37,619 bases of DNA, from positions 1-37,619 of IMG/VR virus record IMGVR_UViG_3300025122_000007. The stretch is one strand, 5' to 3'. Positions 23,851 through 36,134 of the stretch are shown here, piece after piece. The notes beneath the pieces were generated by a model that was not told where the DNA came from, made no database searches, and worked only from the letters and a program-made list of their open reading frames with translations. Source of the DNA: a virus. Its lineage: Duplodnaviria > Heunggongvirae > Uroviricota > Caudoviricetes. Numbering within the stretch: the first letter of the stretch is position 1; each line of letters starts with the position of its first letter. A program made the position numbers and the translations under genes.

Positions 23851-24181
23851 CTTCCTCTACTGGCTGTGCCAACACGCCAGGCATCACAAACGTTTGATTA
23901 GGGCCACCGCCTGCTACGCCACCAGGAATCATGTTGTTGGAAGCAAGTACTTCATCTTCAATGATCTTAGGTGGAGCTACGGGAGTCAGAAAGAGTTGCA
24001 CCTGTGCATTGAACACTGTCAAGGCCAAGTCATGTACTCTACCATCTCTCATAGACGGCATTCCTGGTTCACTTTCATCATCAGGGATGATCAGGTCACC
24101 AAGCATATAACATTCGCTGGCCAGGACGGCCAGATCATGATCAAGGACATCAAGCCCTTGAATAACTAGACCTGGTCCCAT
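23810..24181 (-). CDS. Hypothetical protein
   Basis: 123-aa ORF in the operon orientation. Confidence 0.5.
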   Translation of the reverse strand: MGPGLVIQGLDVLDHDLAVLASECYMLGDLIIPDDESEPGMPSMRDGRVHDLALTVFNAQVQLFLTPVAPPKIIEDEVLASNNMIPGGVAGGGPNQTFVMPGVLAQPVEEDDGSDQENQDLSG

Positions 24182-24627
24182 CCTAGCACCCTAGGCACTG
24201 CAAACTCTACGAGCTGCACAAAGCTCATGATCTGATGCGTCTTGGCATATACAGATACGAACTTGTTGTTTGCGCCTTCCTTCTGTCCAATTGATAGCTT
24301 GAATGAACCCTTGTTTCCGGGTTCGATCTTGAACGTGCTTGTCTTGCCATTGTGGTCATGGACAAGGTGAACCTTGTTGTCTACCTTCAGGCCTGACAGA
24401 ATCTGTCCCAGGTCTGCAGATCCAAGAGCCATGATGATCTTGTTTCCCCAGTCACAACGCTCTCCGTCGTCAAGGGTCGGTGCGGCTTCGATGAAGATAG
24501 CTCCTTCCTTGTCGACCACCTCGAACTGCTTACCTTCTGGAACCTTCCATCTAGGACCCGCAAAGGAGAACTGGAACTGACCCTGCTTCTTCATGTACAC
24601 ACTGAAATTTTCGCTTCTTTTACTCAC
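24166..24627 (-). CDS. Whirly-like single-stranded nucleic-acid-binding protein
   Basis: FSVY...EGAIFIEAAP...DWGNKIIMALGSADLGQIL...LVHD...FKIEP...FAVPRVLGW follows the Whirly motif order. Confidence 0.75.
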   Translation of the reverse strand: MSKRSENFSVYMKKQGQFQFSFAGPRWKVPEGKQFEVVDKEGAIFIEAAPTLDDGERCDWGNKIIMALGSADLGQILSGLKVDNKVHLVHDHNGKTSTFKIEPGNKGSFKLSIGQKEGANNKFVSVYAKTHQIMSFVQLVEFAVPRVLGWDQV

Positions 24628-25372: not shown

Positions 25373-25778
25373 TGGTGGACGTGGGGAGAGTCGAACTCCC
25401 GTCCGCAAACACTCATGTGTTCATCGATACAATCATTCCTGTTAACAGGCATAGGGGCGTCGTTAGGACGCCTCCACCAGGGTAGATTTAAGGTCTCTCC
25501 AAGACAGGGGTGAGTAGTTTATATCCTCCGCTCTCAGAGGTGAATTTATCAAAGCGACTTTCTGTTCAGAGGCAGTCACCGCCCGTGGCTTTATGCGAGT
25601 GCGAGCTCGCCAGATCCGAAGATCATAGCGAAATCGGCCCTCAGGCCAGCGAACACAGTCTCGATTGACTCGATCATATCTGCATTTACTTTGTTTGGGT
25701 TTGTATTTAAGTGAGCCAACCCACTCACTGATTGCGATTCATACAGTCTTGTATCCACGTCGATACCTTTTCACGCCC
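25373..25778 (-). ncRNA. ssrA: tmRNA, 406 nt, one-piece
   Basis: Acceptor stem GGGCGUG/CACGUCC with G3:U70, discriminator A and encoded CCA. 5' GGUAUCGAC, T-arm GGGAG-UUCGACU-CUCCC, pk1 (GUGAGU/GCUCAC with GGGUU/AACCC), and an internal tag ORF. Confidence 0.96.
25591..25683 (-). other. tmRNA tag reading frame: (A)ADMIESIETVFAGLRADFAMIFGSGELALA*
   Basis: The resume codon GCA after GUAAAU is inferred. The frame is open for 30 codons and ends LALA-UAA. Confidence 0.8.
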
Positions 25779-25851: not shown

Positions 25852-26220
25852 TTAGAACGGGATAGGAGCTGTTCCACCCGTCACTGCGCCAGTGGTCTCA
25901 GTCGTGGTAGCGACTGTGGTTCCACCGGTGGCCTCATTATAAGCTGCCTCAACCGCTTGCTGCAACTCGACACGTACTTCCTTGGAAGTAGGCCAGACCT
26001 CATCAAAGTAACGACGATTGGTATCACCTTCTGCCTGTGTGTCATCGAACTTACGGTTCTGAGACTGAGGTAGAGCGATAAAATAACCACTACCATCCTT
26101 CTTTCGAATCAACCGATACCTCACGGCGACAGCGTCAGCGATTGTAACAGATCCTCCTGCTACGACTGGTCCATCACCTTCGTTCGGCCAAATTCTAATT
26201 CCTGTAATGAATGTACTCAT
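25852..26220 (-). CDS. spoVG: SpoVG-family nucleic-acid-binding protein with an SSB-like C-terminal tail
   Basis: ITGIRIWP...AGGSVTIADAVAVR...FIALPQ...YFDEVWPTSKEVRVELQQAVEAAY, then a T/G/A-rich linker ending IPF. Confidence 0.8.
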   Translation of the reverse strand: MSTFITGIRIWPNEGDGPVVAGGSVTIADAVAVRYRLIRKKDGSGYFIALPQSQNRKFDDTQAEGDTNRRYFDEVWPTSKEVRVELQQAVEAAYNEATGGTTVATTTETTGAVTGGTAPIPF

Positions 26221-26408
26221 TAGTTCTCCTTAATGTCCATAAAGCCCATCCATTTCAGGGTCTTATCCAGGACTGCATTGATTTCTTTAGCTAATTCCAC
26301 GTCTTTGCATTGGATAGCTAAGGCATAGAGATCAGTTCCGCTCTTGTAAAATTCATAGGTTATCATCTGGTAATGCAGATTGTCCTTGAGTTCCTTCGTC
26401 GTACTCAC
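26220..26408 (-). CDS. Small hypothetical protein overlapping the RT 3' end
   Basis: 62-aa ORF whose stop abuts the spoVG start. Confidence 0.5.
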   Translation of the reverse strand: MSTTKELKDNLHYQMITYEFYKSGTDLYALAIQCKDVELAKEINAVLDKTLKWMGFMDIKEN

Positions 26409-27222
26409 CTCTATAACTCCTCATCAAGCTTTCATATTGAGAAGGCTTGACTCCTTTGATGAACTCCAGAATGCCAAGCATGCTTTCGTCCATCTCTTCT
26501 CCCTTCAGCCCCAAGAAATGGAGCTGTTGGCGCAACTGATTTCTTGTCTTCTTCGATACACCAAGTGTGTCGTTGTTGACTACGATTCCAGTTACAGACT
26601 GTCGTTGGAAGTAAGGCATCTTCTTGATCTTGCGATCATTGAGCTTAAAGCCAAATTCCTCAGCTACGGTACGTATCCTGTTTACAAACCAATCAGGTAT
26701 CTCATCTCCAGAAAAGGTAAGATCATCTGCATACCGTGTATAGGTAAGCTCCTGACTGTCCGCTACTCTTTTCAACTCAAAATCCATAGGCTTAAGTACT
26801 ATGTTTGAGATGACTGGACTGGTACATGCTCCCTGTGGAAGACATCCATTCAAGGTGCAGAGAGATGTTATCTTCTCTACATCCCATTCATCATTGACAT
26901 CAAGGTGCTCTTCCTCTCTTGTAAGAGCTTTGAAGATCATGAAGCTGGTAACAGAGGGAAAGAAGTCTTTGAGATCTATATTGATCACATACTTCTTTGC
27001 CTTATGAAGCTCAGCATTTGTAAGAATGCTTCTGTCTGCTCTGAAACCATGTGCAGCTGGATGCAAAGGAACCTTATCAAGTCGTTCTTTTGCCAGCTTG
27101 TGCCACTCGATGATGTCACCGATAGGTTCAGTGATCTGCCGAAACTTTCCACTCTTTTTCTTTACTGAATAGATTCGATAGTAACTATGTCTATTCGCTA
27201 AGATGTCACTGAGTCCAGACAT
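26353..27222 (-). CDS. Retron-type reverse transcriptase
   Basis: KKSGKFRQI, AHGF, NAELH (NAxxH), IDLKDFFPS, LPQGACTSP, catalytic YADD, and SVTGIVVN (VTG). Confidence 0.93.
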   Translation of the reverse strand: MSGLSDILANRHSYYRIYSVKKKSGKFRQITEPIGDIIEWHKLAKERLDKVPLHPAAHGFRADRSILTNAELHKAKKYVINIDLKDFFPSVTSFMIFKALTREEEHLDVNDEWDVEKITSLCTLNGCLPQGACTSPVISNIVLKPMDFELKRVADSQELTYTRYADDLTFSGDEIPDWFVNRIRTVAEEFGFKLNDRKIKKMPYFQRQSVTGIVVNNDTLGVSKKTRNQLRQQLHFLGLKGEEMDESMLGILEFIKGVKPSQYESLMRSYRGEYDEGTQGQSALPDDNL

Positions 27223-27845
27223 TCTTCTTCACCTGGTAGGAAGTTTCTCCATGAAGAATGAACCTTGCTGACTCCTGCTGTCATTGGTTTCCATTCTGGA
27301 ATGTAAGGCTTCGATAGAAGTTTCATTCCTGCTTCTTTTGGAGTTCTGTTCCCCTTCCTTTGATTGCACTTGATACATGCTGTCACACAATTATCAAAGT
27401 TGGTTCCAGGGAAACGCATGGTTGGATGGTTTCTTGGTATCACATGATCTATGTTGATACGCGGCCTGCCATTGCTATCTCTTCTGTTTCTCTTGAAATC
27501 ATTACCACAGTACTGGCATCTATAGTTGTCTCTTTCAAAGACACCACCTCTGCTGTATTTCAGTTCATGCCTAGGTAGTCTGTCGTACTTGGTAAGAATG
27601 ACCACTCTAGGAACTAGGATGGGTGTTCCTGGACCATGCCTAACAAAGTCCTCGAACAATTCCATCTGCTTTTCATTGACTGGCAGAGTTCTCCACGCAG
27701 AGAAATCATGAACCATTCCAGTTCTATGATCTAGAGCGTTTACCGTTCCAGAGCATAGTCTTGTGAATGCTCTTCCTACTTCAATGATATGAATAGGAAA
27801 CCATTGTTTGTTTAGTACTAAAGTATCACCACGGATGCCCATCAT
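27198..27845 (-). CDS. McrA-like HNH endonuclease
   Basis: RDNYRCQYCG, NIDHVIPR and VTACIKCNQRKGNRTP. Overlaps the RT start by 25 nt. Confidence 0.9.
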   Translation of the reverse strand: MMGIRGDTLVLNKQWFPIHIIEVGRAFTRLCSGTVNALDHRTGMVHDFSAWRTLPVNEKQMELFEDFVRHGPGTPILVPRVVILTKYDRLPRHELKYSRGGVFERDNYRCQYCGNDFKRNRRDSNGRPRINIDHVIPRNHPTMRFPGTNFDNCVTACIKCNQRKGNRTPKEAGMKLLSKPYIPEWKPMTAGVSKVHSSWRNFLPGEEECLDSVTS

Positions 27846-27862
27846 CCATCTCCTTTAGGTTG

Positions 27863-28087
27863 TGGTAGTTTCAGGAATCGAACCCAAATGCAGACAATCC
27901 CCTCTGTGTTAACAAAAGTGGAAAGGTGAATTGTGTGCTTACACCAGCTCTACCTTGAAATTCAATCCATAAGCTCCATGGCTTAGGTTCTCTTTGGCAA
28001 TGCCCTTACTTAGCCTCTAACCATCACTCGTTTAAGAGGCACCGTAGGAATCAGACCGTCGTCTGCTCTGCTTATGAATCAAACTAC
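27863..28087 (-). ncRNA. Candidate ~225-nt structured RNA with tRNA-like closure (candidate RT-associated ncRNA)
   Basis: Terminal stem GUAGUUU/AAACUAC, 8-bp GCAGACGA/UUGUCUGC, T-arm-like UUGGG-UUCGAUU-CCUGA, and several internal hairpins. Confidence 0.55.
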
Positions 28088-28118
28088 AAGCAAGGGGCCA
28101 GCTGTGCTGAGCCCCTTG
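28081..28118 (-). terminator. GC-rich hairpin, possible terminator or processing site after the ThiF gene
   Basis: CAAGGGGC(U)CAGC-ACA-GCUG-GCCCCUUG followed by CUUGUAGUUU (weak U-tract). Confidence 0.5.
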
Positions 28119-28193
28119 TATATGCTTACCGTTCCTTAGAGGTCCCTATTGGTTTGTCTCTGTCCCTCATATTGGGTAAGCAATGCAGTCTAA

Positions 28194-29264
28194 TCAGACT
28201 GCCAGTTCTACCTCGGCTACTTGATCCTCAGTCGTCTCTACCACTTCGATCGTAGGAGTCTCTTCGACGACTGTCGCCTTCTTCTTCTTACGCTTTCGTG
28301 GATATGCAACCTTATAAAGGTCTAGCTCCTTCAGGGTGGTATCAAAGTTTACGATCTTCTCATGAGCAGCTTGGATAGCTGTTCTGGTCAAACGAACAGG
28401 AGTTATCCTGTTGGTGTTAGCCTTGAAGTAGACCATATGATAACCCAACGGTTCATGTCTCAATATTACTTGCAGTGCATTGTATAATACTTGTGCTGCA
28501 GTCATATTGACCGAAATACTTTGGGGGTTGGCCAAAGCTCTCATTGCACAGTTCTCAGGGTTTTCTGCTTCGGTGGGCAACAAGCCCATCTCTCCGAAAG
28601 CACTTGGGAACTGTTCAAAGAAACAAGGGAGCCTGAATGCCTTTGGAATAGGCACTTCTTCAGAATCTAAGTCTGGGTCTTCCAAAGCAGAGATGGTGTC
28701 CCTGCTTTGTCCTTTATACGCGATGACCATTTGACCTGTGAACTGTTCGTTTCCTGAGTCCAACCAGAAAGTCTCTAGGTGCTCAGGTCTCTTCATGTAC
28801 CACTTGAAGAACAGTGCTCTTGTCTTGTTGTTGTCTACGCATGTAATCAAGATAGGACTTGCGTTGGTAGATTGGGTATAGATCAGAGCATTGATGTCTT
28901 CGTTGCTCTCTAGATAGCCATTGTAGTAGGCGATATCAATGCCAAAGGCATTTGAATATCTCTTTGCCATGACTTCAGCTTTGTACTTGTTGACATCAGC
29001 TCTTACAAACTGTTGTCTTACAAGATTCTTATCTTCTACCTTGTCACCATCAACCAAGACCAGCCTTAGGCTGTCAGGTTTCTTGTTGCCCATGCCACCA
29101 CGTCTCAACTTGTTGATGAGTGAGATGTATCGTGCCAGGTGTGGAATCAGATAGCCGCCAGTTCCTCCACATCCCACTACGATGACGACCTTGTCGATAG
29201 ATCTATCGGAAGGCCCCCGATTATAATAGCCGTGGAAGTTATGTACTGTATTAATTTCTCGCAT
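28194..29264 (-). CDS. ThiF/E1-like ubiquitin-activating enzyme (PRTRC-type; likely start MREINT)
   Basis: VVGCGGTGG, LVDGDKVEDKNLVRQQF, KAEVMA, TCVDNNKTR, WLDSGN, and a conserved-position Cys in ENCA. Confidence 0.9.
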   Translation of the reverse strand: MREINTVHNFHGYYNRGPSDRSIDKVVIVVGCGGTGGYLIPHLARYISLINKLRRGGMGNKKPDSLRLVLVDGDKVEDKNLVRQQFVRADVNKYKAEVMAKRYSNAFGIDIAYYNGYLESNEDINALIYTQSTNASPILITCVDNNKTRALFFKWYMKRPEHLETFWLDSGNEQFTGQMVIAYKGQSRDTISALEDPDLDSEEVPIPKAFRLPCFFEQFPSAFGEMGLLPTEAENPENCAMRALANPQSISVNMTAAQVLYNALQVILRHEPLGYHMVYFKANTNRITPVRLTRTAIQAAHEKIVNFDTTLKELDLYKVAYPRKRKKKKATVVEETPTIEVVETTEDQVAEVELAV

Positions 29265-29271
29265 TGTATCC

Positions 29272-30591
29272 TTACTCGCCAAACGTTTCGCTTGTCTCGT
29301 GAAAATCTCGAAGAGCCTCGTTGATAGTTTCATTGTGACCTATGGCCGCCAATCTACCTACGATATGATAGATGTCATCTTGATCAGCTATGTTACAGAT
29401 TGCATCGATGTAGTCGTAGATCGCTGCTTCGTCAGCAAGGAGCCAGCTGAACTCTTCGAATTGATCTGGAGGATCAATACCTACCAAGTATTCAGAGACC
29501 CAATCTGGATCTTCTCCGAAGGTATAAAGAAGCTCTCTATCATCCTTGCCAAGACCAAACTTCTCCCACCAGTCGACAGTCTGTTCACCAAAAGCATCTC
29601 TTATCTTCTGGATCCTGTCTTCTTCCTTCGGAAGGTAGTACGTCCTGCTCGGACCCCACTCCCCAAAGAGGCTCGGATCGAACGAGGACTTGGTCTTGAA
29701 TTCAACTGGAATTCCATTGACGATTGAGTCTGGTCTGCCTTGAAAGCGGCTCCTTGGCCTGACAACCTGCTTTCTTGCAGCTACGTGTGCAATATTCGCC
29801 CGCCATACAGCTTCGGGAATTTCTACCACAGGAATATTTTCCAATCCATCCACTGTGTCGGATTCGATATCAAAGATCTCGTCAAGACTAAGTGGAACCT
29901 CTTGACCTGTAACACAGGAGACTGCACGCAAAGCCCATTCAGGCAGAGCTTTCTGGATCTTGCCAACTACTCCATAAAGTCTGAAGGCTTTCTCGTCAGC
30001 AGTGTCGGTTCCTGAAAAGTAACCAGACATTGTGTTGTGAGAATGAATCTCCATAGCTGTGATGAGGTTCGGATCCGCTTCTTTGGTAAGATCACGCTCA
30101 TAACGGACTCCACCCTTGCTGACCACATGCTTGGGAACGTCAATGAAGTACTCCTGCTTCTCGATGTCAAAGTAGATGACTGCGTATGCCTCAGCCTCAT
30201 TCATCTCTTTACAAATTTTTCTGAAAAAGGTGACGATCTGAGCAAAGTGATTGATTGGGATACGTGGAAGAGTGAGCTCAAAATTAGGCTCGACGTCTTC
30301 AGGGTGTCCAGGAATCTTGAACTCAGCTTCTCTTGTTGTAATTGTTCCAATTGGATTGCTTTCAATTACATAGAGGCCATCACCACGGACAATCTTTGTT
30401 CGTGGCTTGTCATACGTACCACTCTCAGACACGTCGGTCACATAACCATAGTATCTATTTTGGAGCTGTTCTCTTACGGTGCTCTTGTTCTTTTGAGTTT
30501 CCATGACTGCCTCTTTCTTGGCAGCGGATTGCCTATCAATCATATTTTTTAGAGCAGCGATGCTGCCATTCGTACTAGTAAGTTTGTCCAC
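29272..30591 (-). CDS. Prokaryotic JAB/JAMM isopeptidase (PRTRC protein A-like) with N- and C-terminal extensions
   Basis: E...HSH-x7-S-x2-D (EIHSHNTMSGYFSGTD), and RLYGVVGKI. Confidence 0.88.
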   Translation of the reverse strand: MDKLTSTNGSIAALKNMIDRQSAAKKEAVMETQKNKSTVREQLQNRYYGYVTDVSESGTYDKPRTKIVRGDGLYVIESNPIGTITTREAEFKIPGHPEDVEPNFELTLPRIPINHFAQIVTFFRKICKEMNEAEAYAVIYFDIEKQEYFIDVPKHVVSKGGVRYERDLTKEADPNLITAMEIHSHNTMSGYFSGTDTADEKAFRLYGVVGKIQKALPEWALRAVSCVTGQEVPLSLDEIFDIESDTVDGLENIPVVEIPEAVWRANIAHVAARKQVVRPRSRFQGRPDSIVNGIPVEFKTKSSFDPSLFGEWGPSRTYYLPKEEDRIQKIRDAFGEQTVDWWEKFGLGKDDRELLYTFGEDPDWVSEYLVGIDPPDQFEEFSWLLADEAAIYDYIDAICNIADQDDIYHIVGRLAAIGHNETINEALRDFHETSETFGE

Positions 30592-31255
30592 TGAATGTCT
30601 CCCTGATTAGATCCTTGATGGTCTTGTTTAGCTGCTTCCCCTCAAGAGGAAAGGTTCCATTCCTGACACATGTTGAGATGAATCCATCAGTGCCACCTAG
30701 GTGGCCGTTGAATGGTGTTGAATAGAATGCATTCACAACCCCTCTGCAAGAGGCGATGTCTGTAGCTTCAATACGATTGCTTCCCCAACAGATGGCACCA
30801 CCGCTATACGTGTTGCCATAGCCTGTGAAGTTATACAGTGTATCGGTATCAAACTTGACGCCATGTTGAAGAGCAAAGACCTTGGAGTCTCTGTATCTAT
30901 TTGGCTGCCGACCACCTCGTCCTGCTGCCTTGGGTGCACCTAGCTGGAAGGCAAAGATCAAGTGAGGAAATGGCACCTGCTTGATGATCTCTCCGGTATA
31001 GCCCCAACGAATGTCCACCTTACGAGGACCACTCTGATAAAGAACTGCCTCTGTGTCACCTTGGCGGCCGACAAAGACAACGCCGGTATCAGAACAAGGC
31101 ATCATGCCTGTATCAAATGCAGTTTCAGAAAAGAGATACTTCAAGTCATCAGGATTGATGGTCTTGGTAGACTGAGAGTCTCCTCGTACCTCTGTAATTG
31201 TGGTTCCCTGCTCATCGATTTCGATGATCAGTTTGTCTGGATCAGTTCTTGGCAC
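30575..31255 (-). CDS. Prokaryotic E2 family D-like protein (PRTRC protein B-like)
   Basis: PFPHLIF...KVFAL...LY...GNTYSGGAICWG...FYSTPFNGHL, with the Cys in ICWG. Confidence 0.8.
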   Translation of the reverse strand: MPRTDPDKLIIEIDEQGTTITEVRGDSQSTKTINPDDLKYLFSETAFDTGMMPCSDTGVVFVGRQGDTEAVLYQSGPRKVDIRWGYTGEIIKQVPFPHLIFAFQLGAPKAAGRGGRQPNRYRDSKVFALQHGVKFDTDTLYNFTGYGNTYSGGAICWGSNRIEATDIASCRGVVNAFYSTPFNGHLGGTDGFISTCVRNGTFPLEGKQLNKTIKDLIRETFSGQTY

Positions 31256-31258
31256 TGC

Positions 31259-32146
31259 CTACTCCAACGCTATGTTCATTAAGGGAACACGATCGAAATC
31301 CACTGTCCCCATGTTATATGTTTCTGTCATTCGAAAGGTTACGATGTTTTGATCTGGATCAAAAGCGTATGTCTTTGGTACATTGTCATAAATGACCTTG
31401 GGTGCTGTTGTAACAGGAGGCTCCCAAGTACCCTCTTCTGTGTACTTGGTGAACGCTGCTCTCTTTCTCGCTTTGAGTTGAGCCTGCTCTTCAAGCCAAT
31501 TCTCTTTGTTGTCAGCAATCTCACAGCAATTATCAATAATTGCTTTGATCTCAGGTAGCTTTTCAATAAGACTATAAAGACCACAGTTAGTTGCATTGAG
31601 GCTTACAGTAAAGGCTCCATTGTAATTGTCCCAAGCAAAACTGATCTTGTTTGGCTCTGCTGCCATCGTGGTCTTAAGATCATTAAAGCTGGCTCTATGA
31701 GCACTTTGCAAGAAAGAATGTGTCCGTCGACCATAGTTGTCAGCATTAGCTCGAGTAGTATCTAACTCACTGATAATACTCCAATATTTTGCTTGTTGTG
31801 TTTCGTTTTCTACAGGTGTGGGGTTGGTTCTTTCATATCGACGGGTACGAGGGTTCCAAACTTCTTGATTGCGACGATTGTAACCATACCTATTGTAGAC
31901 ACCGATTTGATAACCACAGACACCGCGAATCTTTTTTATCTCCCAATCAGGAAAATAAAAAGAGATGGCAGAACGAAGTAGTCGACCTGACACTGCATCG
32001 TAGGACTTCTGTCCTCCTCTCTCAGCTTCTTGCCAAGAGATCATTTTTCTGTCACGTCCTACAACACCAAGATCTTTCAGCTTCTTATGAGCACGAAGAT
32101 AGTCTAGATAGTAGTGAAAGGATTTGACCTTTGCAGCTGTATCCAT
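31259..32146 (-). CDS. Hypothetical protein within the ubiquitin-like cassette
   Basis: 295-aa ORF between the E2 and Ubl genes. Confidence 0.6.
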   Translation of the reverse strand: MDTAAKVKSFHYYLDYLRAHKKLKDLGVVGRDRKMISWQEAERGGQKSYDAVSGRLLRSAISFYFPDWEIKKIRGVCGYQIGVYNRYGYNRRNQEVWNPRTRRYERTNPTPVENETQQAKYWSIISELDTTRANADNYGRRTHSFLQSAHRASFNDLKTTMAAEPNKISFAWDNYNGAFTVSLNATNCGLYSLIEKLPEIKAIIDNCCEIADNKENWLEEQAQLKARKRAAFTKYTEEGTWEPPVTTAPKVIYDNVPKTYAFDPDQNIVTFRMTETYNMGTVDFDRVPLMNIALE

Positions 32147-32433
32147 TAGATAAAGTTATCTCCCTCTCCAATGATTGCAGGAATTATAGACACACGAGAA
32201 ACCCATTTCGCTGCCTGAGTGGCAGTCTCTTTGAGCCCGTCAATGTTTCCCTTGACGGCATCTAGCTCATCATCACCAAATTCGAACTCATCGATTAGGT
32301 TTAGATAGTCTTGATGAGACCTGAGATTAACAAGTCTTCTAAGAAATTGTAGGTGTGGTCCAGGCAAGGTTTCAGTAAGCTCTTCACTTTCTGCAACTGC
32401 CTTCGCCAACTCTGTTAGAAATGGATTACTCAT
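32146..32433 (-). CDS. Helical hypothetical protein (likely start MSNPFL)
   Basis: GAAGG precedes the ATG at 32433; the stop overlaps the next start. Confidence 0.55.
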   Translation of the reverse strand: MSNPFLTELAKAVAESEELTETLPGPHLQFLRRLVNLRSHQDYLNLIDEFEFGDDELDAVKGNIDGLKETATQAAKWVSRVSIIPAIIGEGDNFI

Positions 32434-32479
32434 ATGACCTTCTTTGTGGACCAGAGGCTCGGCGGCATGGCCCTGAGCG

Positions 32480-32674
32480 TTAGCCCTTGTTGCCAGCGGT
32501 GACTGCGAAGTCCCAGTACGTAGCATCATCGGTTTCGCTTACACGAACCGTGCTATTTGCTAGCTCCGGGAACTCCTCAGAAAGAACCTCACCGAACAGG
32601 CGTGGCGTAACACCACCCGCTGTGTCGACAGGGATCTCTTCACCGTTGTAACGTGCATAAACTGGCTTTGCCAT
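32480..32674 (-). CDS. Ubiquitin-like protein (PRTRC protein C / Prok-Ub-like)
   Basis: 64 aa with a beta-grasp-like pattern, FPELANSTV and a C-terminal F-x-x-x-AGNKG. Strong AAGGAGGT RBS. Confidence 0.8.
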   Translation of the reverse strand: MAKPVYARYNGEEIPVDTAGGVTPRLFGEVLSEEFPELANSTVRVSETDDATYWDFAVTAGNKG

Positions 32675-32688
32675 TATGTGTTACCTCC

Positions 32689-33111
32689 TTATCGGTTTTG
32701 CAATCTGGTAACCGTAGCCTTGTAGGCTATGATTGAGCGTTGCAGACTCGCGTTCTCAGCAGTGAGACGTGCGATCTCTTCAGCAAGAGCGCCATCTTCT
32801 TCTACATCTACAGCAGCGACACCCCAGACATCAGTCTCGGGCACCTCCTCTGCAGCGAGATGATCAGCTAGAGCATCGCGTGCGTTCTCACGTGCGATCT
32901 CTACCTCATCCACTCGTAGAAGCAGGTCCTCAGCAGTTGCCAAGACTAGATCATCTAGTACTTCAGCATCATCACAGACGTTGACCACCAGGGCATTGCC
33001 TGCACGACCGATAACACTATGTAGTGCACCGTTCTGCTTGACCTTGAGACTCCACTCACCAAAGTTCTCATCCATATCACTAATGAATTGACTTAGCGTC
33101 TTTGTACTCAT
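32689..33111 (-). CDS. Acidic hypothetical protein with C-terminal coiled-coil motif AENxxLxRSIxAYKATVTR
   Basis: 140-aa ORF; the motif is shared with 20871..20993. Confidence 0.6.
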   Translation of the reverse strand: MSTKTLSQFISDMDENFGEWSLKVKQNGALHSVIGRAGNALVVNVCDDAEVLDDLVLATAEDLLLRVDEVEIARENARDALADHLAAEEVPETDVWGVAAVDVEEDGALAEEIARLTAENASLQRSIIAYKATVTRLQNR

Positions 33112-34699
33112 TACTTTCCTCCACTAATTTCAAGAGCTTATGTTGTTCGTTCAACTCGGGTTCATCTAGGACCCGCTCAAGAAGATTCTTTAAGATGCGA
33201 CCATAAACAGGGCCAGGCTCTAGTCCCAACTCCTTCAGATCCTTGCCACCTATGGCAAGGTCATTCGTCTTCAGCGCATTGCTGTCTTTGATTGCTGCCT
33301 CGTACATATACTTGGCTAGCCTCTGATGGAAGGTGGTTCCATGTTTCTTTCTATTTCCCGCTCTGTCCGCAGCACGAAGCAGCAGCAGGTCATAGAATTG
33401 TTGTTCACCACCTACCTTTCTGACCAATCTTCTGATAGCTGACAGTGAGCTCTCATCCGAGATCTTTGTAGCATTGACAGAGCGATCTTCATTACACCTG
33501 GAACACTTGTCCTTGTCTGGTAGATACGCTGGTCTGTCAGGTGCATACTTAGAGTAGTAACTACGCCAGATGTGTCCCTTGTCACACTTACTCTCATAAG
33601 TTTCACTGTCTAATCTAAAGAGATGGTATCTGATCAGATTTGTAACCCTTTCACGAGTCTTGTTGCTGAATCGAAGCTGTTTAAGCTGCCGATCACCAAT
33701 AGAAGCACCGATTGCATCATGTGCATAGAAGGTACAGTCTTCAACAACTTCCCTTACCTTTCCACACTTGATACAACCAGTACGATTCTCTGGTGCTCTT
33801 TTTCCACAACCTCTACATGTATAGGTGATTCCCTTTGATTGGGGCTTTCCTACATCATGCAGCAAAGCTGCAAGCACCAGCTCTGGATCACTGGTGGTGT
33901 TCTTCATCGCTACACATGCCAGGACACTATGAGTCCATACATCATCAGCATGATAGATATTCTGAAGGCATCCGATCGATGGAACCATCTTAGGAAGCAG
34001 ATACCGTACCGCTCCTGTAGTTTTGACCAGCTCAAGGCTTCTGAAGAGATTATCTCCTGAACCCTTGAACGTCTTCATCAACTCGTCCCTTCTCCGTTCC
34101 CAAGACACAACAGACAGACCATCAATATTTTTGGTCATCTCTTTCAGATCTCTGGAACGAATGAAGAAGCCTAGTTGAGATACAAACCTGATCCCTCTTA
34201 GGATTCGAAGATAGTCTTCCTGAATCCGATCGGCCGCCGCGCCTACAAAACGAATCGTCTTCTTGTTGATATCTTTGATACCATCAAAAGGATCAACTAG
34301 TTTTTGCGATTCGACATCAAAAGCAATGGCATTCATCGTAAAGTCACGACGAGCCAGGTCTTCCTCAATGGTCTTAGCCCACTCTACTGTGGCTTTACGA
34401 CCATCAGTGGTTATATCTTTACGGAAGGTAGTAACCTCAATGCTTTCGGATTCAGAGAAACAACCTCTCTGCAGAATGGTCATAGTTCCGTGGGCCTCTC
34501 CCGTTGGAACCACTCTCCATTCTTTTCCTGCGAAAGCAATACACATCTCATCAGGAGTTGCATTGGTAGCGATATCTATATCGTTGAAAGGCCTGCCAAT
34601 CAAGGCATCACGAACACACCCACCTACGTAGTAGGCTTGGTAACCGCTATCAATCAGGCGAGTAGCAACTGCCTTGGCTGTCTTTGAAACTGTAATCAT
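33080..34699 (-). CDS. cca: CCA-adding enzyme / class II tRNA nucleotidyltransferase with HD domain and Zn-ribbon insertions
   Basis: VGGCVRD...DIDIAT, EVTTFR, EEDLARRDFTMNA, EDYLRILR and LLHDVGKP. Confidence 0.92.
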   Translation of the reverse strand: MITVSKTAKAVATRLIDSGYQAYYVGGCVRDALIGRPFNDIDIATNATPDEMCIAFAGKEWRVVPTGEAHGTMTILQRGCFSESESIEVTTFRKDITTDGRKATVEWAKTIEEDLARRDFTMNAIAFDVESQKLVDPFDGIKDINKKTIRFVGAAADRIQEDYLRILRGIRFVSQLGFFIRSRDLKEMTKNIDGLSVVSWERRRDELMKTFKGSGDNLFRSLELVKTTGAVRYLLPKMVPSIGCLQNIYHADDVWTHSVLACVAMKNTTSDPELVLAALLHDVGKPQSKGITYTCRGCGKRAPENRTGCIKCGKVREVVEDCTFYAHDAIGASIGDRQLKQLRFSNKTRERVTNLIRYHLFRLDSETYESKCDKGHIWRSYYSKYAPDRPAYLPDKDKCSRCNEDRSVNATKISDESSLSAIRRLVRKVGGEQQFYDLLLLRAADRAGNRKKHGTTFHQRLAKYMYEAAIKDSNALKTNDLAIGGKDLKELGLEPGPVYGRILKNLLERVLDEPELNEQHKLLKLVEESNEYKDAKSIH

Positions 34700-34701
34700 G
34701 A

Positions 34702-35367
34702 TTATGCACCTACGATTTGATCGACCATTCCCTTCTTACCGTACTCCAAACAATCCTCTGGACTCATCCAATAGTCATGCTTCAAGTCTGATCGAACCTT
34801 GGACTTACGTTGTCCACAAGTCTTTGCGATTCGATTTACTGCCTGTTCATGAAGCATCTCTGTCCACCTCATGTCATCTTTCAATTCTTGGTATGTACCC
34901 CAAGCTATAGATGATAATTGATGAATCATCATATAAGAGCTGGGTGTGATAACCCTGCCCCCTGGAGCACCACTCATAGCAATGAGAGCACCCATGCTTG
35001 CAGCATAGCCTTCTACATATGTGATGACTGGTGAACTGATGGCGTTCATGCAATCAATGATTGCATTCCCATCGATGATGCTACCTCCAGGAGAATTGAT
35101 GTACATGATAATAGGGGGATTCATATCCCACCTATTATATTCAGCATCATATTCTCTTAGGGCTCTAATGATCTTGGAAGATACCGTCGTTCCAATTGGC
35201 TTGTCCAGATAGATTTCTCTTCGCTCATCAACAATGATGATCTCGTTTTGATCTCCACCCAAGCTACTCTTTGTTCCCTTCTTCTCAGAAGGAGTTGAAG
35301 AATTAGTAGGCGGTCGTCTGTTCAGTAACCTGTTCAAATCGAACGGGTGAGTTGCGGAGTGACTCAA
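34702..35367 (-). CDS. clpP: ClpP-family serine protease
   Basis: YINSPGG, catalytic S in AASMG, H in MIHQ, and D in DYWMS. Confidence 0.93.
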   Translation of the reverse strand: MSHSATHPFDLNRLLNRRPPTNSSTPSEKKGTKSSLGGDQNEIIIVDERREIYLDKPIGTTVSSKIIRALREYDAEYNRWDMNPPIIMYINSPGGSIIDGNAIIDCMNAISSPVITYVEGYAASMGALIAMSGAPGGRVITPSSYMMIHQLSSIAWGTYQELKDDMRWTEMLHEQAVNRIAKTCGQRKSKVRSDLKHDYWMSPEDCLEYGKKGMVDQIVGA

Positions 35368-35602
35368 GTGTATCTCCCTGCTTTACGGATCTGCGATTGA
35401 CTCCGGAAAGAACTAGATGCTTGTGACCATTACTGGCACGTGTGATGATGTCTACGATGAGACCTCGACAAACGATAGTGTCTTCACGATAGACCAATAC
35501 GCCGTCGTTGATCTGGAAGTCTGCAAAGTCCGCTGGGGCTGTGAGTGTGAACTCATTGCTGGTGGGATCTACAAAGAACCCATCTACTGTAATTCTATTC
35601 AT
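35303..35602 (-). CDS. Hypothetical beta-rich protein (possible EF-Tu domain II-like barrel)
   Basis: LVLSGVNRRSVKQGDTL resembles the last strand and turn of translation-factor domain II barrels. Confidence 0.35.
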   Translation of the reverse strand: MNRITVDGFFVDPTSNEFTLTAPADFADFQINDGVLVYREDTIVCRGLIVDIITRASNGHKHLVLSGVNRRSVKQGDTLESLRNSPVRFEQVTEQTTAY

Positions 35603-35874
35603 TAGAATATTTCTCCTTCTTCGTCTTCAGTTACAGAGATGACAATGATGTCTCCCCTCAATCTGAAGTGATGTGCCTTGACCTCACGGTCAGGATCTGG
35701 GTTAAGGTGTCTTACATAGGCCCGAAGCAAGTCGGTGACCTTGGCCACCTCTTCTTCTGTTACCTCGAATACATCCTTAAATTCTTCTTGAGCAAACTGT
35801 AGAAGTTCTCGTTCCCACTTTGGATTACGATCACCTTCCCAGTACTCTCTAGGTGAGTATAATTTTCTCGCCAT
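35602..35874 (-). CDS. Hypothetical protein (likely start MARKLY)
   Basis: AAGAGG precedes the ATG at 35874. Confidence 0.55.
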   Translation of the reverse strand: MARKLYSPREYWEGDRNPKWERELLQFAQEEFKDVFEVTEEEVAKVTDLLRAYVRHLNPDPDREVKAHHFRLRGDIIVISVTEDEEGEIF

Positions 35875-36134
35875 GTTATGACCTCTTAAGAGGATTAGAT
35901 CTGATAGAGGATAGGACACTGCCTACCCTATAACAGTCGAGATGTGTTCACGCTGAGGAGCTCAGCAGTCACTGCAGTGATGTCCCAGTTCGAGTCGACG
36001 AATCTGTTCGGCGACCTCGAGGACATGTCCTGGTCATCTCATGAAGAGCTATAGTCGTGGCCTTCTCGGTTCCGCGAACTGCTGTGCAGTGATTACGCGA
36101 GACCGAGAGGCCGTAGACTATAGCTCTTCCTGTT

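Follow-up and report, generated by a model that had tools for sequence, protein, structure and literature searches.

The cassette and its genes

The window analyzed here, 37,619 nucleotides (nt) of DNA from an uncultured jumbo phage, contains on its minus strand a six-gene cassette built around a ubiquitin-like modifier (Ubl) and resembling the PRTRC type (ParB-Related, ThiF-Related Cassette) of bacterial mobile elements. The cassette occupies positions 28194-32674, which is exactly the span from the stop of the activating enzyme (E1) gene to the start of the Ubl gene. In order of transcription, Ubl is followed by two lineage-specific proteins, p96 and p295, an E2-like (conjugating) enzyme, a JAB metallopeptidase and a ThiF-type E1 (Table 1). 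The window makes up the initial 37.6 kb of an IMG/VR virus record of 120,396 bp, for which CheckV gives a completeness of 56%; the record is a fragment, and these values imply a genome of roughly 200 kb. The six genes listed in the initial annotation are all present in the sequence with the order and coordinates given there, and the Ubl end AGNKG, the ICWG of the E2 and an intact JAMM motif can each be read in the translations.

Table 1. Positions and characteristics of the cassette genes and of the neighboring features in the window
Feature	Position	Strand	Size	Characteristics
Ubl	32480-32674	-	64 aa	Ends ...VTAGNKG, then TAA; made in finished form
p96	32146-32433	-	95 aa	Lineage-specific; stop overlaps p295 start by 1 nt
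p295	31259-32146	-	295 aa	Variable slot directly upstream of E2; lineage-specific
E2-like	30575-31255	-	226 aa	GGAICWG, Cys156; Prok-E2_D / PRTRC_B type
JAB	29272-30591	-	439 aa	Glu134, H183-S-H185-x7-S193-x2-D196; HSHNTMSGYFSGTD
ThiF/E1	28194-29333	-	379 aa	GCGGTGG, D95xD97, R106Q107, D167, R172
p140	32689-33111	-	140 aa	Acidic, C-terminal coiled-coil-like segment; directly upstream of Ubl
Spacer	27846-28193	-	348 nt	Non-coding, between E1 and HNH; structured; belongs to the reverse transcriptase unit
HNH endonuclease	27198-27845	-	215 aa	PF01844, E 5e-10; phrog_16726, 9.3e-24; between E1 and reverse transcriptase
Reverse transcriptase	26353-27222	-	289 aa	Retron St85-family reverse transcriptase
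Small ORF	26220-26408	-	62 aa	
SpoVG-like	25852-26220	-	122 aa	PF04026, E 2.4e-9; nucleic-acid-binding type
Whirly-family ssDNA-binding protein	24166-24627	-		1.2 kb beyond the SpoVG-like gene
tRNA nucleotidyltransferase (CCA-adding enzyme)	33080-34699	-	539 aa	
ClpP	34702-35367	-	221 aa	Phage ClpP-type protease, two genes upstream of the cassette
tmRNA	25373-25778	-		ARAGORN call; 30-residue tag peptide ending ...GELALA; partial Rfam RF00023 match, 25.3 bits

The Ubl best matches the PRTRC_C model (TIGR03738), with an E value of 1e-3 and 19.2 bits against a cut-off of 45.95. K63 and G64 do not vary across 35 phage homologs, G61 is more than 90% conserved, and the consensus end is AGTKG. The initial annotation had assumed a beta-grasp fold for this protein. 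Its AlphaFold2 model (pLDDT 86.4) has the order strand-strand-helix-strand-strand with a free or disordered tail, and when the model was compared, independently of Foldseek, with 48,161 solved chains, nearly all of its neighbors were ubiquitin-like beta-grasp domains (Z 4-5.3, 56-63 residues aligned), among them the Raf Ras-binding domain, Fubi, the parkin Ubl, SUMO, MoaD and ISG15. The model is consistent with a beta-grasp fold, though not proof of it. The Ubl family profile, compared by sequence with solved structures, found none.

The E1 best matches TIGR03736 (E 7.8e-29), where 100.7 bits against a cut-off of 144.75 mark it as a relative rather than an equivalog, and the Pfam ThiF domain PF00899 is matched at E 7e-15. 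Residues G54, G56, G57, D95, D97, N103, R106, Q107, K118, D167, R172 and C262 are conserved in all of 83 E1 sequences, and Cys262 is a candidate thioester site. The protein ends in a C-terminal tail that is first basic and then acidic. The E1 family profile matches the solved E1s of NEDD8, Uba1 and UBA6 as well as MccB and ThiF at approximately 1e-7. Similarity to the PADLOC models of the fused E1-E2 protein (Cap2) of the cyclic oligonucleotide-based antiphage signaling system (CBASS) is weak (E 1e-6 to 7e-3), as are the matches to the NCBIfam 6A-MBL cap2_3 model and in PHROGs v4, where Ubl, p96, p295, E2 and JAB have no family.

The 226-aa protein is likely an E2-like conjugating enzyme with Cys156 as the predicted catalytic residue, judging by its motifs and family matches. 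It matches Prok-E2_D (PF14460; E 3.9e-5, 23.9 bits, cut-off 25) and PRTRC_B (TIGR03737; E 2.6e-5, 23.7 bits, cut-off 131.45), and 70 of its 100 nearest feature matches in the Atlas are Prok-E2_D clusters, many of them viral, with scores of up to 0.99. N148 and C156 are found in all of 76 sequences and P97 in 97% of them; Asn148 precedes Cys156 by eight residues, the spacing of the HPN...C motif in canonical E2s.

The JAB protein, for which an ATG at 30504 is an alternative start, matches PRTRC_A (TIGR03735) at E 1.7e-11 with 44.1 bits (cut-off 101.8), Pfam Prok-JAB at E 2e-3 and, below threshold, DUF7659 over residues 11-56. The JAMM pattern E...HxHx7Sx2D is present, and each of the residues E134, H183, S184, H185, S193 and D196 is retained in 92% or more of 73 sequences. 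The protein has a C-terminal extension of approximately 200 aa, which Arash-like and other jumbo-phage JABs share; it has no usable match in Pfam or the Atlas, and its structural matches reach a TM score of at most 0.31. Used as single sequences against solved structures, E1, JAB and E2 gave no match.

Four collinear genes thus match four separate PRTRC models (C, B, A and ThiF), each as the top or sole match, which is more than chance would produce. Together with the intact catalytic residues, this bears out the earlier proposal that the phage carries the Ubl, E2, JAB and E1 core set of a PRTRC-type cassette.

Distribution in phages and plasmids

At the DNA level the cassette has no blastn match among 50,697 phage records, and E1 as a single-protein query found no match in IMG/VR, so that an alignment-based scan was needed. 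The scan identified 92 E1 relatives, and 80 loci were kept; the fetched relatives are designated by L numbers, with flanks of up to 8 kb per side, less at contig ends. Iterative hidden Markov models run on the open reading frames (ORFs) of the fetched loci detected E1 in 88 cases, E2 in 81, JAB in 75 and Ubl in 54. With few exceptions among these approximately 80 phage loci, Ubl comes first and is separated by 0.7-2.2 kb from E2, JAB and E1, in that order.

The closest relative, L005, is a 198.8-kb metagenomic contig in which the genes from ClpP to the reverse transcriptase (RT) stand in the same order. Ubl is the best-conserved protein of the block in this comparison, at 72% identity, followed by E1 (61%), E2 (60%), p295 (43%), JAB (42%), p96 (33%) and p140 (29%). 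E1 relatives with 26-37% identity are encoded by the Bacillus jumbo phages Edson, KLEB27-3 and WH1, Salmonella phage Arash, Vibrio phages and Ralstonia phage Dina. For the Bacillus and Salmonella phage examples, the presence of E2, JAB and Ubl genes beside E1 is confirmed, and in KLEB27-3 and Arash the gene order is the same with the partners left unannotated. E1 relatives also occur on 266 plasmid records, 123 of them from Bacillus; Bacillus thuringiensis plasmids of ~235 kb (for example NZ_CP013278.1 and NC_018509.1) have them at two places each.

The true Ubl of Salmonella phage Arash (OQ632216) is an unannotated 66-aa ORF (L003:107-307) that ends ...RRTGTKG and a stop; the annotation instead shows gp251c, which overlaps this ORF in a different frame. 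The complete cassette is therefore not visible in the Arash annotation. The E1 and E2 homologs of Arash have been detected as proteins by mass spectrometry (PMC10585845). We rejected their 'structural protein' label as evidence of a place in the virion: the same mass-spectrometry list includes RNA polymerase and ribonucleotide reductase, and the detection speaks for expression only.

The form of the Ubl gene was tallied over 85 loci. In 33 of them the KG is followed by a C-terminal extension, and in 8 the gene encodes a tandem poly-Ubl (four repeats in KLEB27-3, five in L067); JAB is present in all 33 and in all 8. In 22 others, including the window, the Ubl ends at KG and a stop, and JAB is present in 20. 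The two JAB-less loci with a detected Ubl are both of this finished form. Every C-extended or tandem precursor is accordingly accompanied by JAB, which fits cleavage by JAB after KG, and the retention of JAB in 20 finished-form loci, the window among them, points to deconjugation besides maturation. Poly-Ubl genes have two to five tandem repeats and are found in Bacillus phage vB_BauM_KLEB27-3 (gp199, L001:754-1503), L008, L050 and L067; each repeat ends G-x-K-G, and the next one begins directly after it.

The accompanying proteins p140, p96 and p295

Three further proteins are encoded together with the core set. Directly upstream of Ubl, p140 has homologs in L005 (phmmer E 2.8e-8), L089 (7.3e-17) and L092 (4.7e-9). 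Since the L092 cassette has no CCA-adding enzyme or ClpP gene nearby, p140 belongs to, or at least travels with, the cassette. It occupies the position of PRTRC_E in canonical cassettes without visible sequence similarity to it, and has no Pfam, NCBIfam or PADLOC family at a meaningful E value. The place of p96 is taken by homologs in L005 (E 1.1e-18) and L092 (3.9e-5), and by an uncalled ORF in L089; the sole family match of p96 is a weak one to PADLOC PD-Lambda-5_A (E 7.4e-5, 19.9 bits, residues 19-81). None of p140, p96 and p295 matches the PRTRC_E or PRTRC_F model.

Relatives of the third protein, p295, number only 16 in a set of 1.84 billion representatives; a word-index search recovered one relative, and the Atlas gave no usable match. 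The family is confined to the slot beside E2. Where enough flank is available, its contexts consist of a Ubl (58-66 aa), a small ORF (90-96 aa), the p295-like protein, E2, JAB and ThiF, and continue with or without HNH, RT and SpoVG-like genes. The N-terminal domain of ~90 aa is conserved, with Y16, R18, H20, M35, R55 and K72 invariant, and the C-terminal part is variable. This pattern fits an adaptor and does not prove one. The AlphaFold2 model of p295 is poor (pLDDT 57.5), and a predicted complex of E2 with the N-terminal domain scored 0.00 against a mark of 0.32, which, given the uncertain fold of the partner, speaks neither for nor against binding.

The slot between Ubl and E2 is always occupied, by mutually unrelated families (hhalign probability <1% between them, including p295 against five other slot-protein families). 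These comprise a Dina type with 13 members, an L015 type with 19 and several singletons. The Dina slot protein (PRTRC_F) matches the Pfam family alpha-hel2 at E 3.5e-5 and so corresponds to the 'largely alpha-helical protein with conserved polar residues' described for operon type 6d (PMC1779556). In the Atlas, a cluster of bacterial 512-aa proteins carries Prok-E2_D in 85% of its members and alpha-hel2 in 37%; the two annotations on one cluster suggest a fusion, and hence a slot protein that works with E2. On its position and conservation, p295 is the foremost candidate for a specificity factor or a first substrate. In a Phocaeicola prophage, PRTRC protein B is reported to be a recurrent mutational hotspot together with a receptor-binding protein adjoining a diversity-generating retroelement (2026 preprint, 10.64898/2026.10.01.756045); this would agree with the E2 side having a part in recognition.

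The p295 stop lies 3 nt ahead of the E2 start. We observe that p295 ends with TAG, which is followed by one Ala codon and an in-frame GTG start of E2 (31256-31261), and that read-through of the TAG would join p295 and E2 into one protein of about 523 aa. Among 11 TAG-ended genes of the window, p295 is the only one whose read-through exceeds 24 aa, and a tRNA with a CUA anticodon is present in the phage genome (G000:C1:43654-43727). In L005, L088, L089 and L092 p295 and E2 are out of frame, and the frame match in the window may be chance.

The downstream reverse transcriptase unit and the gene neighborhood

Downstream of E1 lies a second unit with an RT of the retron St85 family. The RT matches the retron_St85_RT model (NF038233) over its full length at E 1.7e-61, with 208 bits against a cut-off of 235, and RVT_1 at 6.5e-21; the motifs NAxxH, YADD and VTG can be read in its translation. 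The spacer that separates E1 from the HNH gene is predicted to be strongly folded: its minimum free energy is -110.9 kcal/mol (z = -3.48), and none of 100 shuffled sequences is equally stable. Near its 3' end it contains a tRNA-like T-arm, GGGTTCGATTCC then ...ACTACCA, with the L005 counterpart GGTTCGACTCC; neither Rfam nor ARAGORN makes a call in the spacer. It is poorly conserved in L005 and absent from L088 and L092, where the genes abut. L092 also has no HNH gene, and its E1 and RT genes overlap by 4 nt. The tail of the SpoVG-like protein (...APIPF) resembles the C-terminal tip of single-stranded DNA-binding protein (SSB).

RT adjoins E1 in the window and in L005, L088, L089, L092, L044, L030, L033, L035 and L038, and lies near the cassette in L010. 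SpoVG-like and Whirly genes recur downstream of RT in L005, L089 and L092, and SpoVG-like homologs are found within the cassette loci of L005, L010, L030, L033, L035, L038 and L044, in shuffled order. The RT-linked loci fall into at least four deep branches of the E1 tree, and the Arash, KLEB27-3 and Dina branches are without RT. The link between RT and the cassette is real but optional. While the description of 28194-32674 as a complete unit is valid for the core genes, the linked unit is wider, with p140 upstream and the RT and SpoVG-like genes downstream.

The whole gene set of the window is on the minus strand. Its other genes include a DnaE-like polymerase, a primase-helicase, a UvsX-like recombinase, PhoH, ribonucleotide reductase and an exonuclease, and the cassette stands inside one long co-oriented array with replication, RNA-repair and quality-control genes. 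Gene junctions within the cassette are short or overlapping, and a consensus scan of 27500-36000 found no excess of promoters or terminators over shuffled sequences. The phage genome is rich in tRNA genes, and its tmRNA gene shares the block with ClpP and the Ubl cassette. ClpP is located at most 4 kb from the cassette in the window, L005, L089 and L044. We considered ClpP as a functional partner and keep it only as a lead, the distance of 4 kb being found in only two independent lineages; a link between tagging and proteolysis, unproven as it is, is possible.

Proposed function and alternative explanations

The cassette is probably a working, reversible ubiquitin-like protein-conjugation system of the jumbo phage, a reading drawn from gene content, order and conserved residues. 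The chemical steps are all proposed from homology. The 64-aa beta-grasp Ubl would leave the ribosome in finished form, its last residue being Gly64; the ThiF-type E1 would adenylate Gly64 and load the Ubl onto Cys262 as a thioester, from which it would pass to Cys156 of the Prok-E2_D-type E2. The E2 would then join it to lysines of target proteins, and the JAB metallopeptidase would strip it off again. In relatives with C-extended or tandem Ubl precursors JAB would also cut after the invariant Lys-Gly. The lineage-specific p140, p96 and p295 would be translated together with the enzymes. The position of the cassette in a long co-oriented array among replication, RNA-repair and quality-control genes suggests that it acts in the infected cell rather than in virion assembly.

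Several observations weigh against this reading. The PRTRC, Prok-E2_D and Prok-JAB matches are all below the curated cut-offs, and the E2 profile, compared by sequence with solved structures, retrieves no solved E2. The structural Z values of the Ubl, at ~5, are modest, as expected for only 64 residues, and Foldseek with the Ubl model returns nothing at E <= 1e-3, its weak matches being of the same kind. The Ubl terminus is Lys-Gly and not Gly-Gly. The role given to p295 draws on position and conservation pattern only, with a poor model. In most cassette phages, the Arash, KLEB27-3 and Dina types among them, no RT lies close by, so that the core function cannot be defined by the RT link. Finally, we found no experimental study of PRTRC, of operon type 6d or of their phage copies in the literature, so that conjugation is extrapolated from other E1-E2 systems.

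The partners of the cassette on mobile elements handle DNA or single-stranded DNA (ssDNA): ParB on plasmids and in temperate phages, and RT, SpoVG-like and Whirly proteins here. We therefore favor a role in the nucleic-acid transactions of the phage itself or in their protection. A bolder version, which we regard as rather doubtful, joins the RT and the Ubl pathway of this jumbo-phage lineage into one hybrid machine with p295 as the target-selecting subunit of E2. In such a machine, the Ubl pathway could tag or untag proteins on RT-made ssDNA bound by the SpoVG-like and Whirly proteins, or the complex of RT and DNA could gate conjugation; a p295-E2 fusion could even arise by amber read-through with the phage's own suppressor tRNA.

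The RT suggests another arrangement, possible if unlikely, in which a retron-like system carried by the phage has the cassette as its effector or regulator arm. A small RT-made DNA would be bound by the SpoVG-like protein, Ubl conjugation would be switched by this complex or act on it, and the outcome would be exclusion of competing phages or plasmids, or decoy-based counter-defence. Retron effector genes sit beside the RT, and here an RT assigned to the retron St85 family at E 1.7e-61 stands beside E1 or, in L010, near the cassette, across at least four deep E1 lineages; in L092 the two genes overlap. The differing gene order between RT-linked lineages argues against inherited synteny alone, and Ubl conjugation can be antiviral, as in Bil (PMC10557695). 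Against such an arm, most cassette loci lack RT in the fetched flanks, among them all those of the Arash, KLEB27-3 and Dina types, and the structured 348-nt spacer, a possible place for msr/msd, is missing in L092 and L088; no retron type with Ubl enzymes was found in the papers searched.

It is less probable still that the cassette serves as stand-alone counter-defence against type II CBASS Cap2/Cap3 or Bil, with JAB stripping host conjugates or the Ubl disabling defence proteins, and with the nearby phage ClpP as a protease that might degrade tagged host proteins. The weak resemblance of E1 to the CBASS E1-E2 (Cap2) models, the early-type gene array with ClpP within 4 kb in the window and three relatives (L005, L089, L044), and the hypervariability between lineages of the slot upstream of E2, as for an arms-race interface, would all agree with such a function. 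It does not account for the upkeep of the whole pathway, when JAB alone would suffice for stripping, and the same cassette stands beside ParB on plasmids and in temperate phages, which indicates a more general role.

A sulfur-carrier system of the ThiS/MoaD/TtuB kind, supplying a thiocarboxylate for the thiolation of tRNA or a cofactor, would use a ThiF-like E1 and could be associated with the tRNA nucleotidyltransferase neighbor in the window and in KLEB27-3 and with the many tRNA genes of the genome. The conserved E2 with its invariant Cys and the JAB would be superfluous for sulfur transfer; E1 has no rhodanese domain, the block contains no sulfurtransferase or cysteine desulfurase, the modifier ends in K-G instead of G-G, and the L092 cassette has no adjoining CCA enzyme. 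These features make a sulfur-carrier role very improbable. That the block is a decayed, inactive relic carried along by synteny, as family matches under the curated cut-offs might suggest, is scarcely credible with all ORFs intact, all catalytic residues kept, Ubl the most conserved protein of the block and retention in at least five divergent relatives.

The only bacterial setting in which ubiquitin-like conjugation has been demonstrated to date is host defence, in type II CBASS and Bil, and phage copies with all catalytic residues suggest that bacterial viruses may themselves use protein tagging, as many eukaryotic viruses do. The lineage provides several handles for this question: the invariant Lys-Gly end, the poly-Ubl precursors of relatives as ready-made JAB substrates, the p295 family, which may select targets, and the recurrent link to a retron-type RT. 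With Salmonella phage Arash and Bacillus phage KLEB27-3 as cultured relatives, it can be addressed at the bench now.

Comparison with known systems

The antiviral system BilABCD (operon type 6C) performs bacterial ubiquitination with a Ubl (BilA), an E1, an E2 and a JAB deubiquitinase, and the reactive Gly of its Ubl is laid bare through prior processing by the JAB; several other bacterial operon families remain uncharacterised (Chambers et al., PMC10557695). Bil differs from the window in being a host defence with a multidomain E1 (BilD) and a CEHH-type E2 (BilB). The window proteins match no Bil-type model in PADLOC, where the coverage of Bil by PADLOC 2.0 is unconfirmed. Type II CBASS Cap2/Cap3 shares with the window the E1 adenylation domain, the E2 cysteine and the JAB chemistry. 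Its E1 and E2 are fused in Cap2, which conjugates the cyclase itself without a separate Ubl, whereas the window proteins are separate and include a dedicated Ubl. The RTs of retron St85 (Retron-Sen2) resemble the window RT, which matches NF038233 over the full length but below the cut-off. By contrast, the window RT is phage-borne, and its neighbors are Ubl enzymes, HNH and a SpoVG-like protein instead of the usual toxin-type effector.

Closer counterparts are the cassettes of Arash, KLEB27-3, Edson and vB_BceM_WH1, where E1 is 29-37% identical to that of the window, the order is the same and the long JABs share the C-terminal extension. KLEB27-3 also has a tRNA nucleotidyltransferase just upstream and is grouped with the window in the E1 tree (95/82 support). 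Unlike the window, the cassettes of the Arash and KLEB27-3 type have no adjoining RT, and their slot proteins are unrelated to p295; the KLEB27-3 Ubl is a four-repeat poly-Ubl precursor, whereas that of the window is single and finished.

PRTRC (NCBIfam TIGR03734-03742) corresponds to operon type 6d, which was predicted by Iyer, Burroughs and Aravind in 2006 (PMC1779556) and is common on plasmids, conjugative elements and phages. It has in common with the window a Ubl with terminal Gly and a G-x-K-G end, a slot protein, an E2-like protein with conserved Cys, JAB and E1 in the same order, and carriage by mobile elements. In Ralstonia phage Dina, PRTRC E, C, F, B, A and ThiF are annotated in RefSeq. 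The window departs from this scheme in several respects: p96 and p295 fill the slot of the alpha-hel2 protein, the Ubl is finished whereas Dina-type Ubls carry a tail of ~62 aa, the JAB has a C-terminal extension of 200 aa, and the partner is a retron-type RT rather than ParB. The absence of ParB (PF02195, TIGR03734), reported earlier for the window, extends to the whole 120-kb record (~56% complete), with none in or beside the cassette. PRTRC_E and PRTRC_F were likewise not found in the 120-kb record, the search for PRTRC_F (TIGR03742) being equally silent in control genomes. By the NCBIfam definition the cassette is PRTRC-like and not a PRTRC member. A phage-borne PRTRC-type cassette is not new in kind, having been predicted in 2006 and annotated in Dina; that of the window is a ParB-less variant of the PRTRC type joined to an RT.

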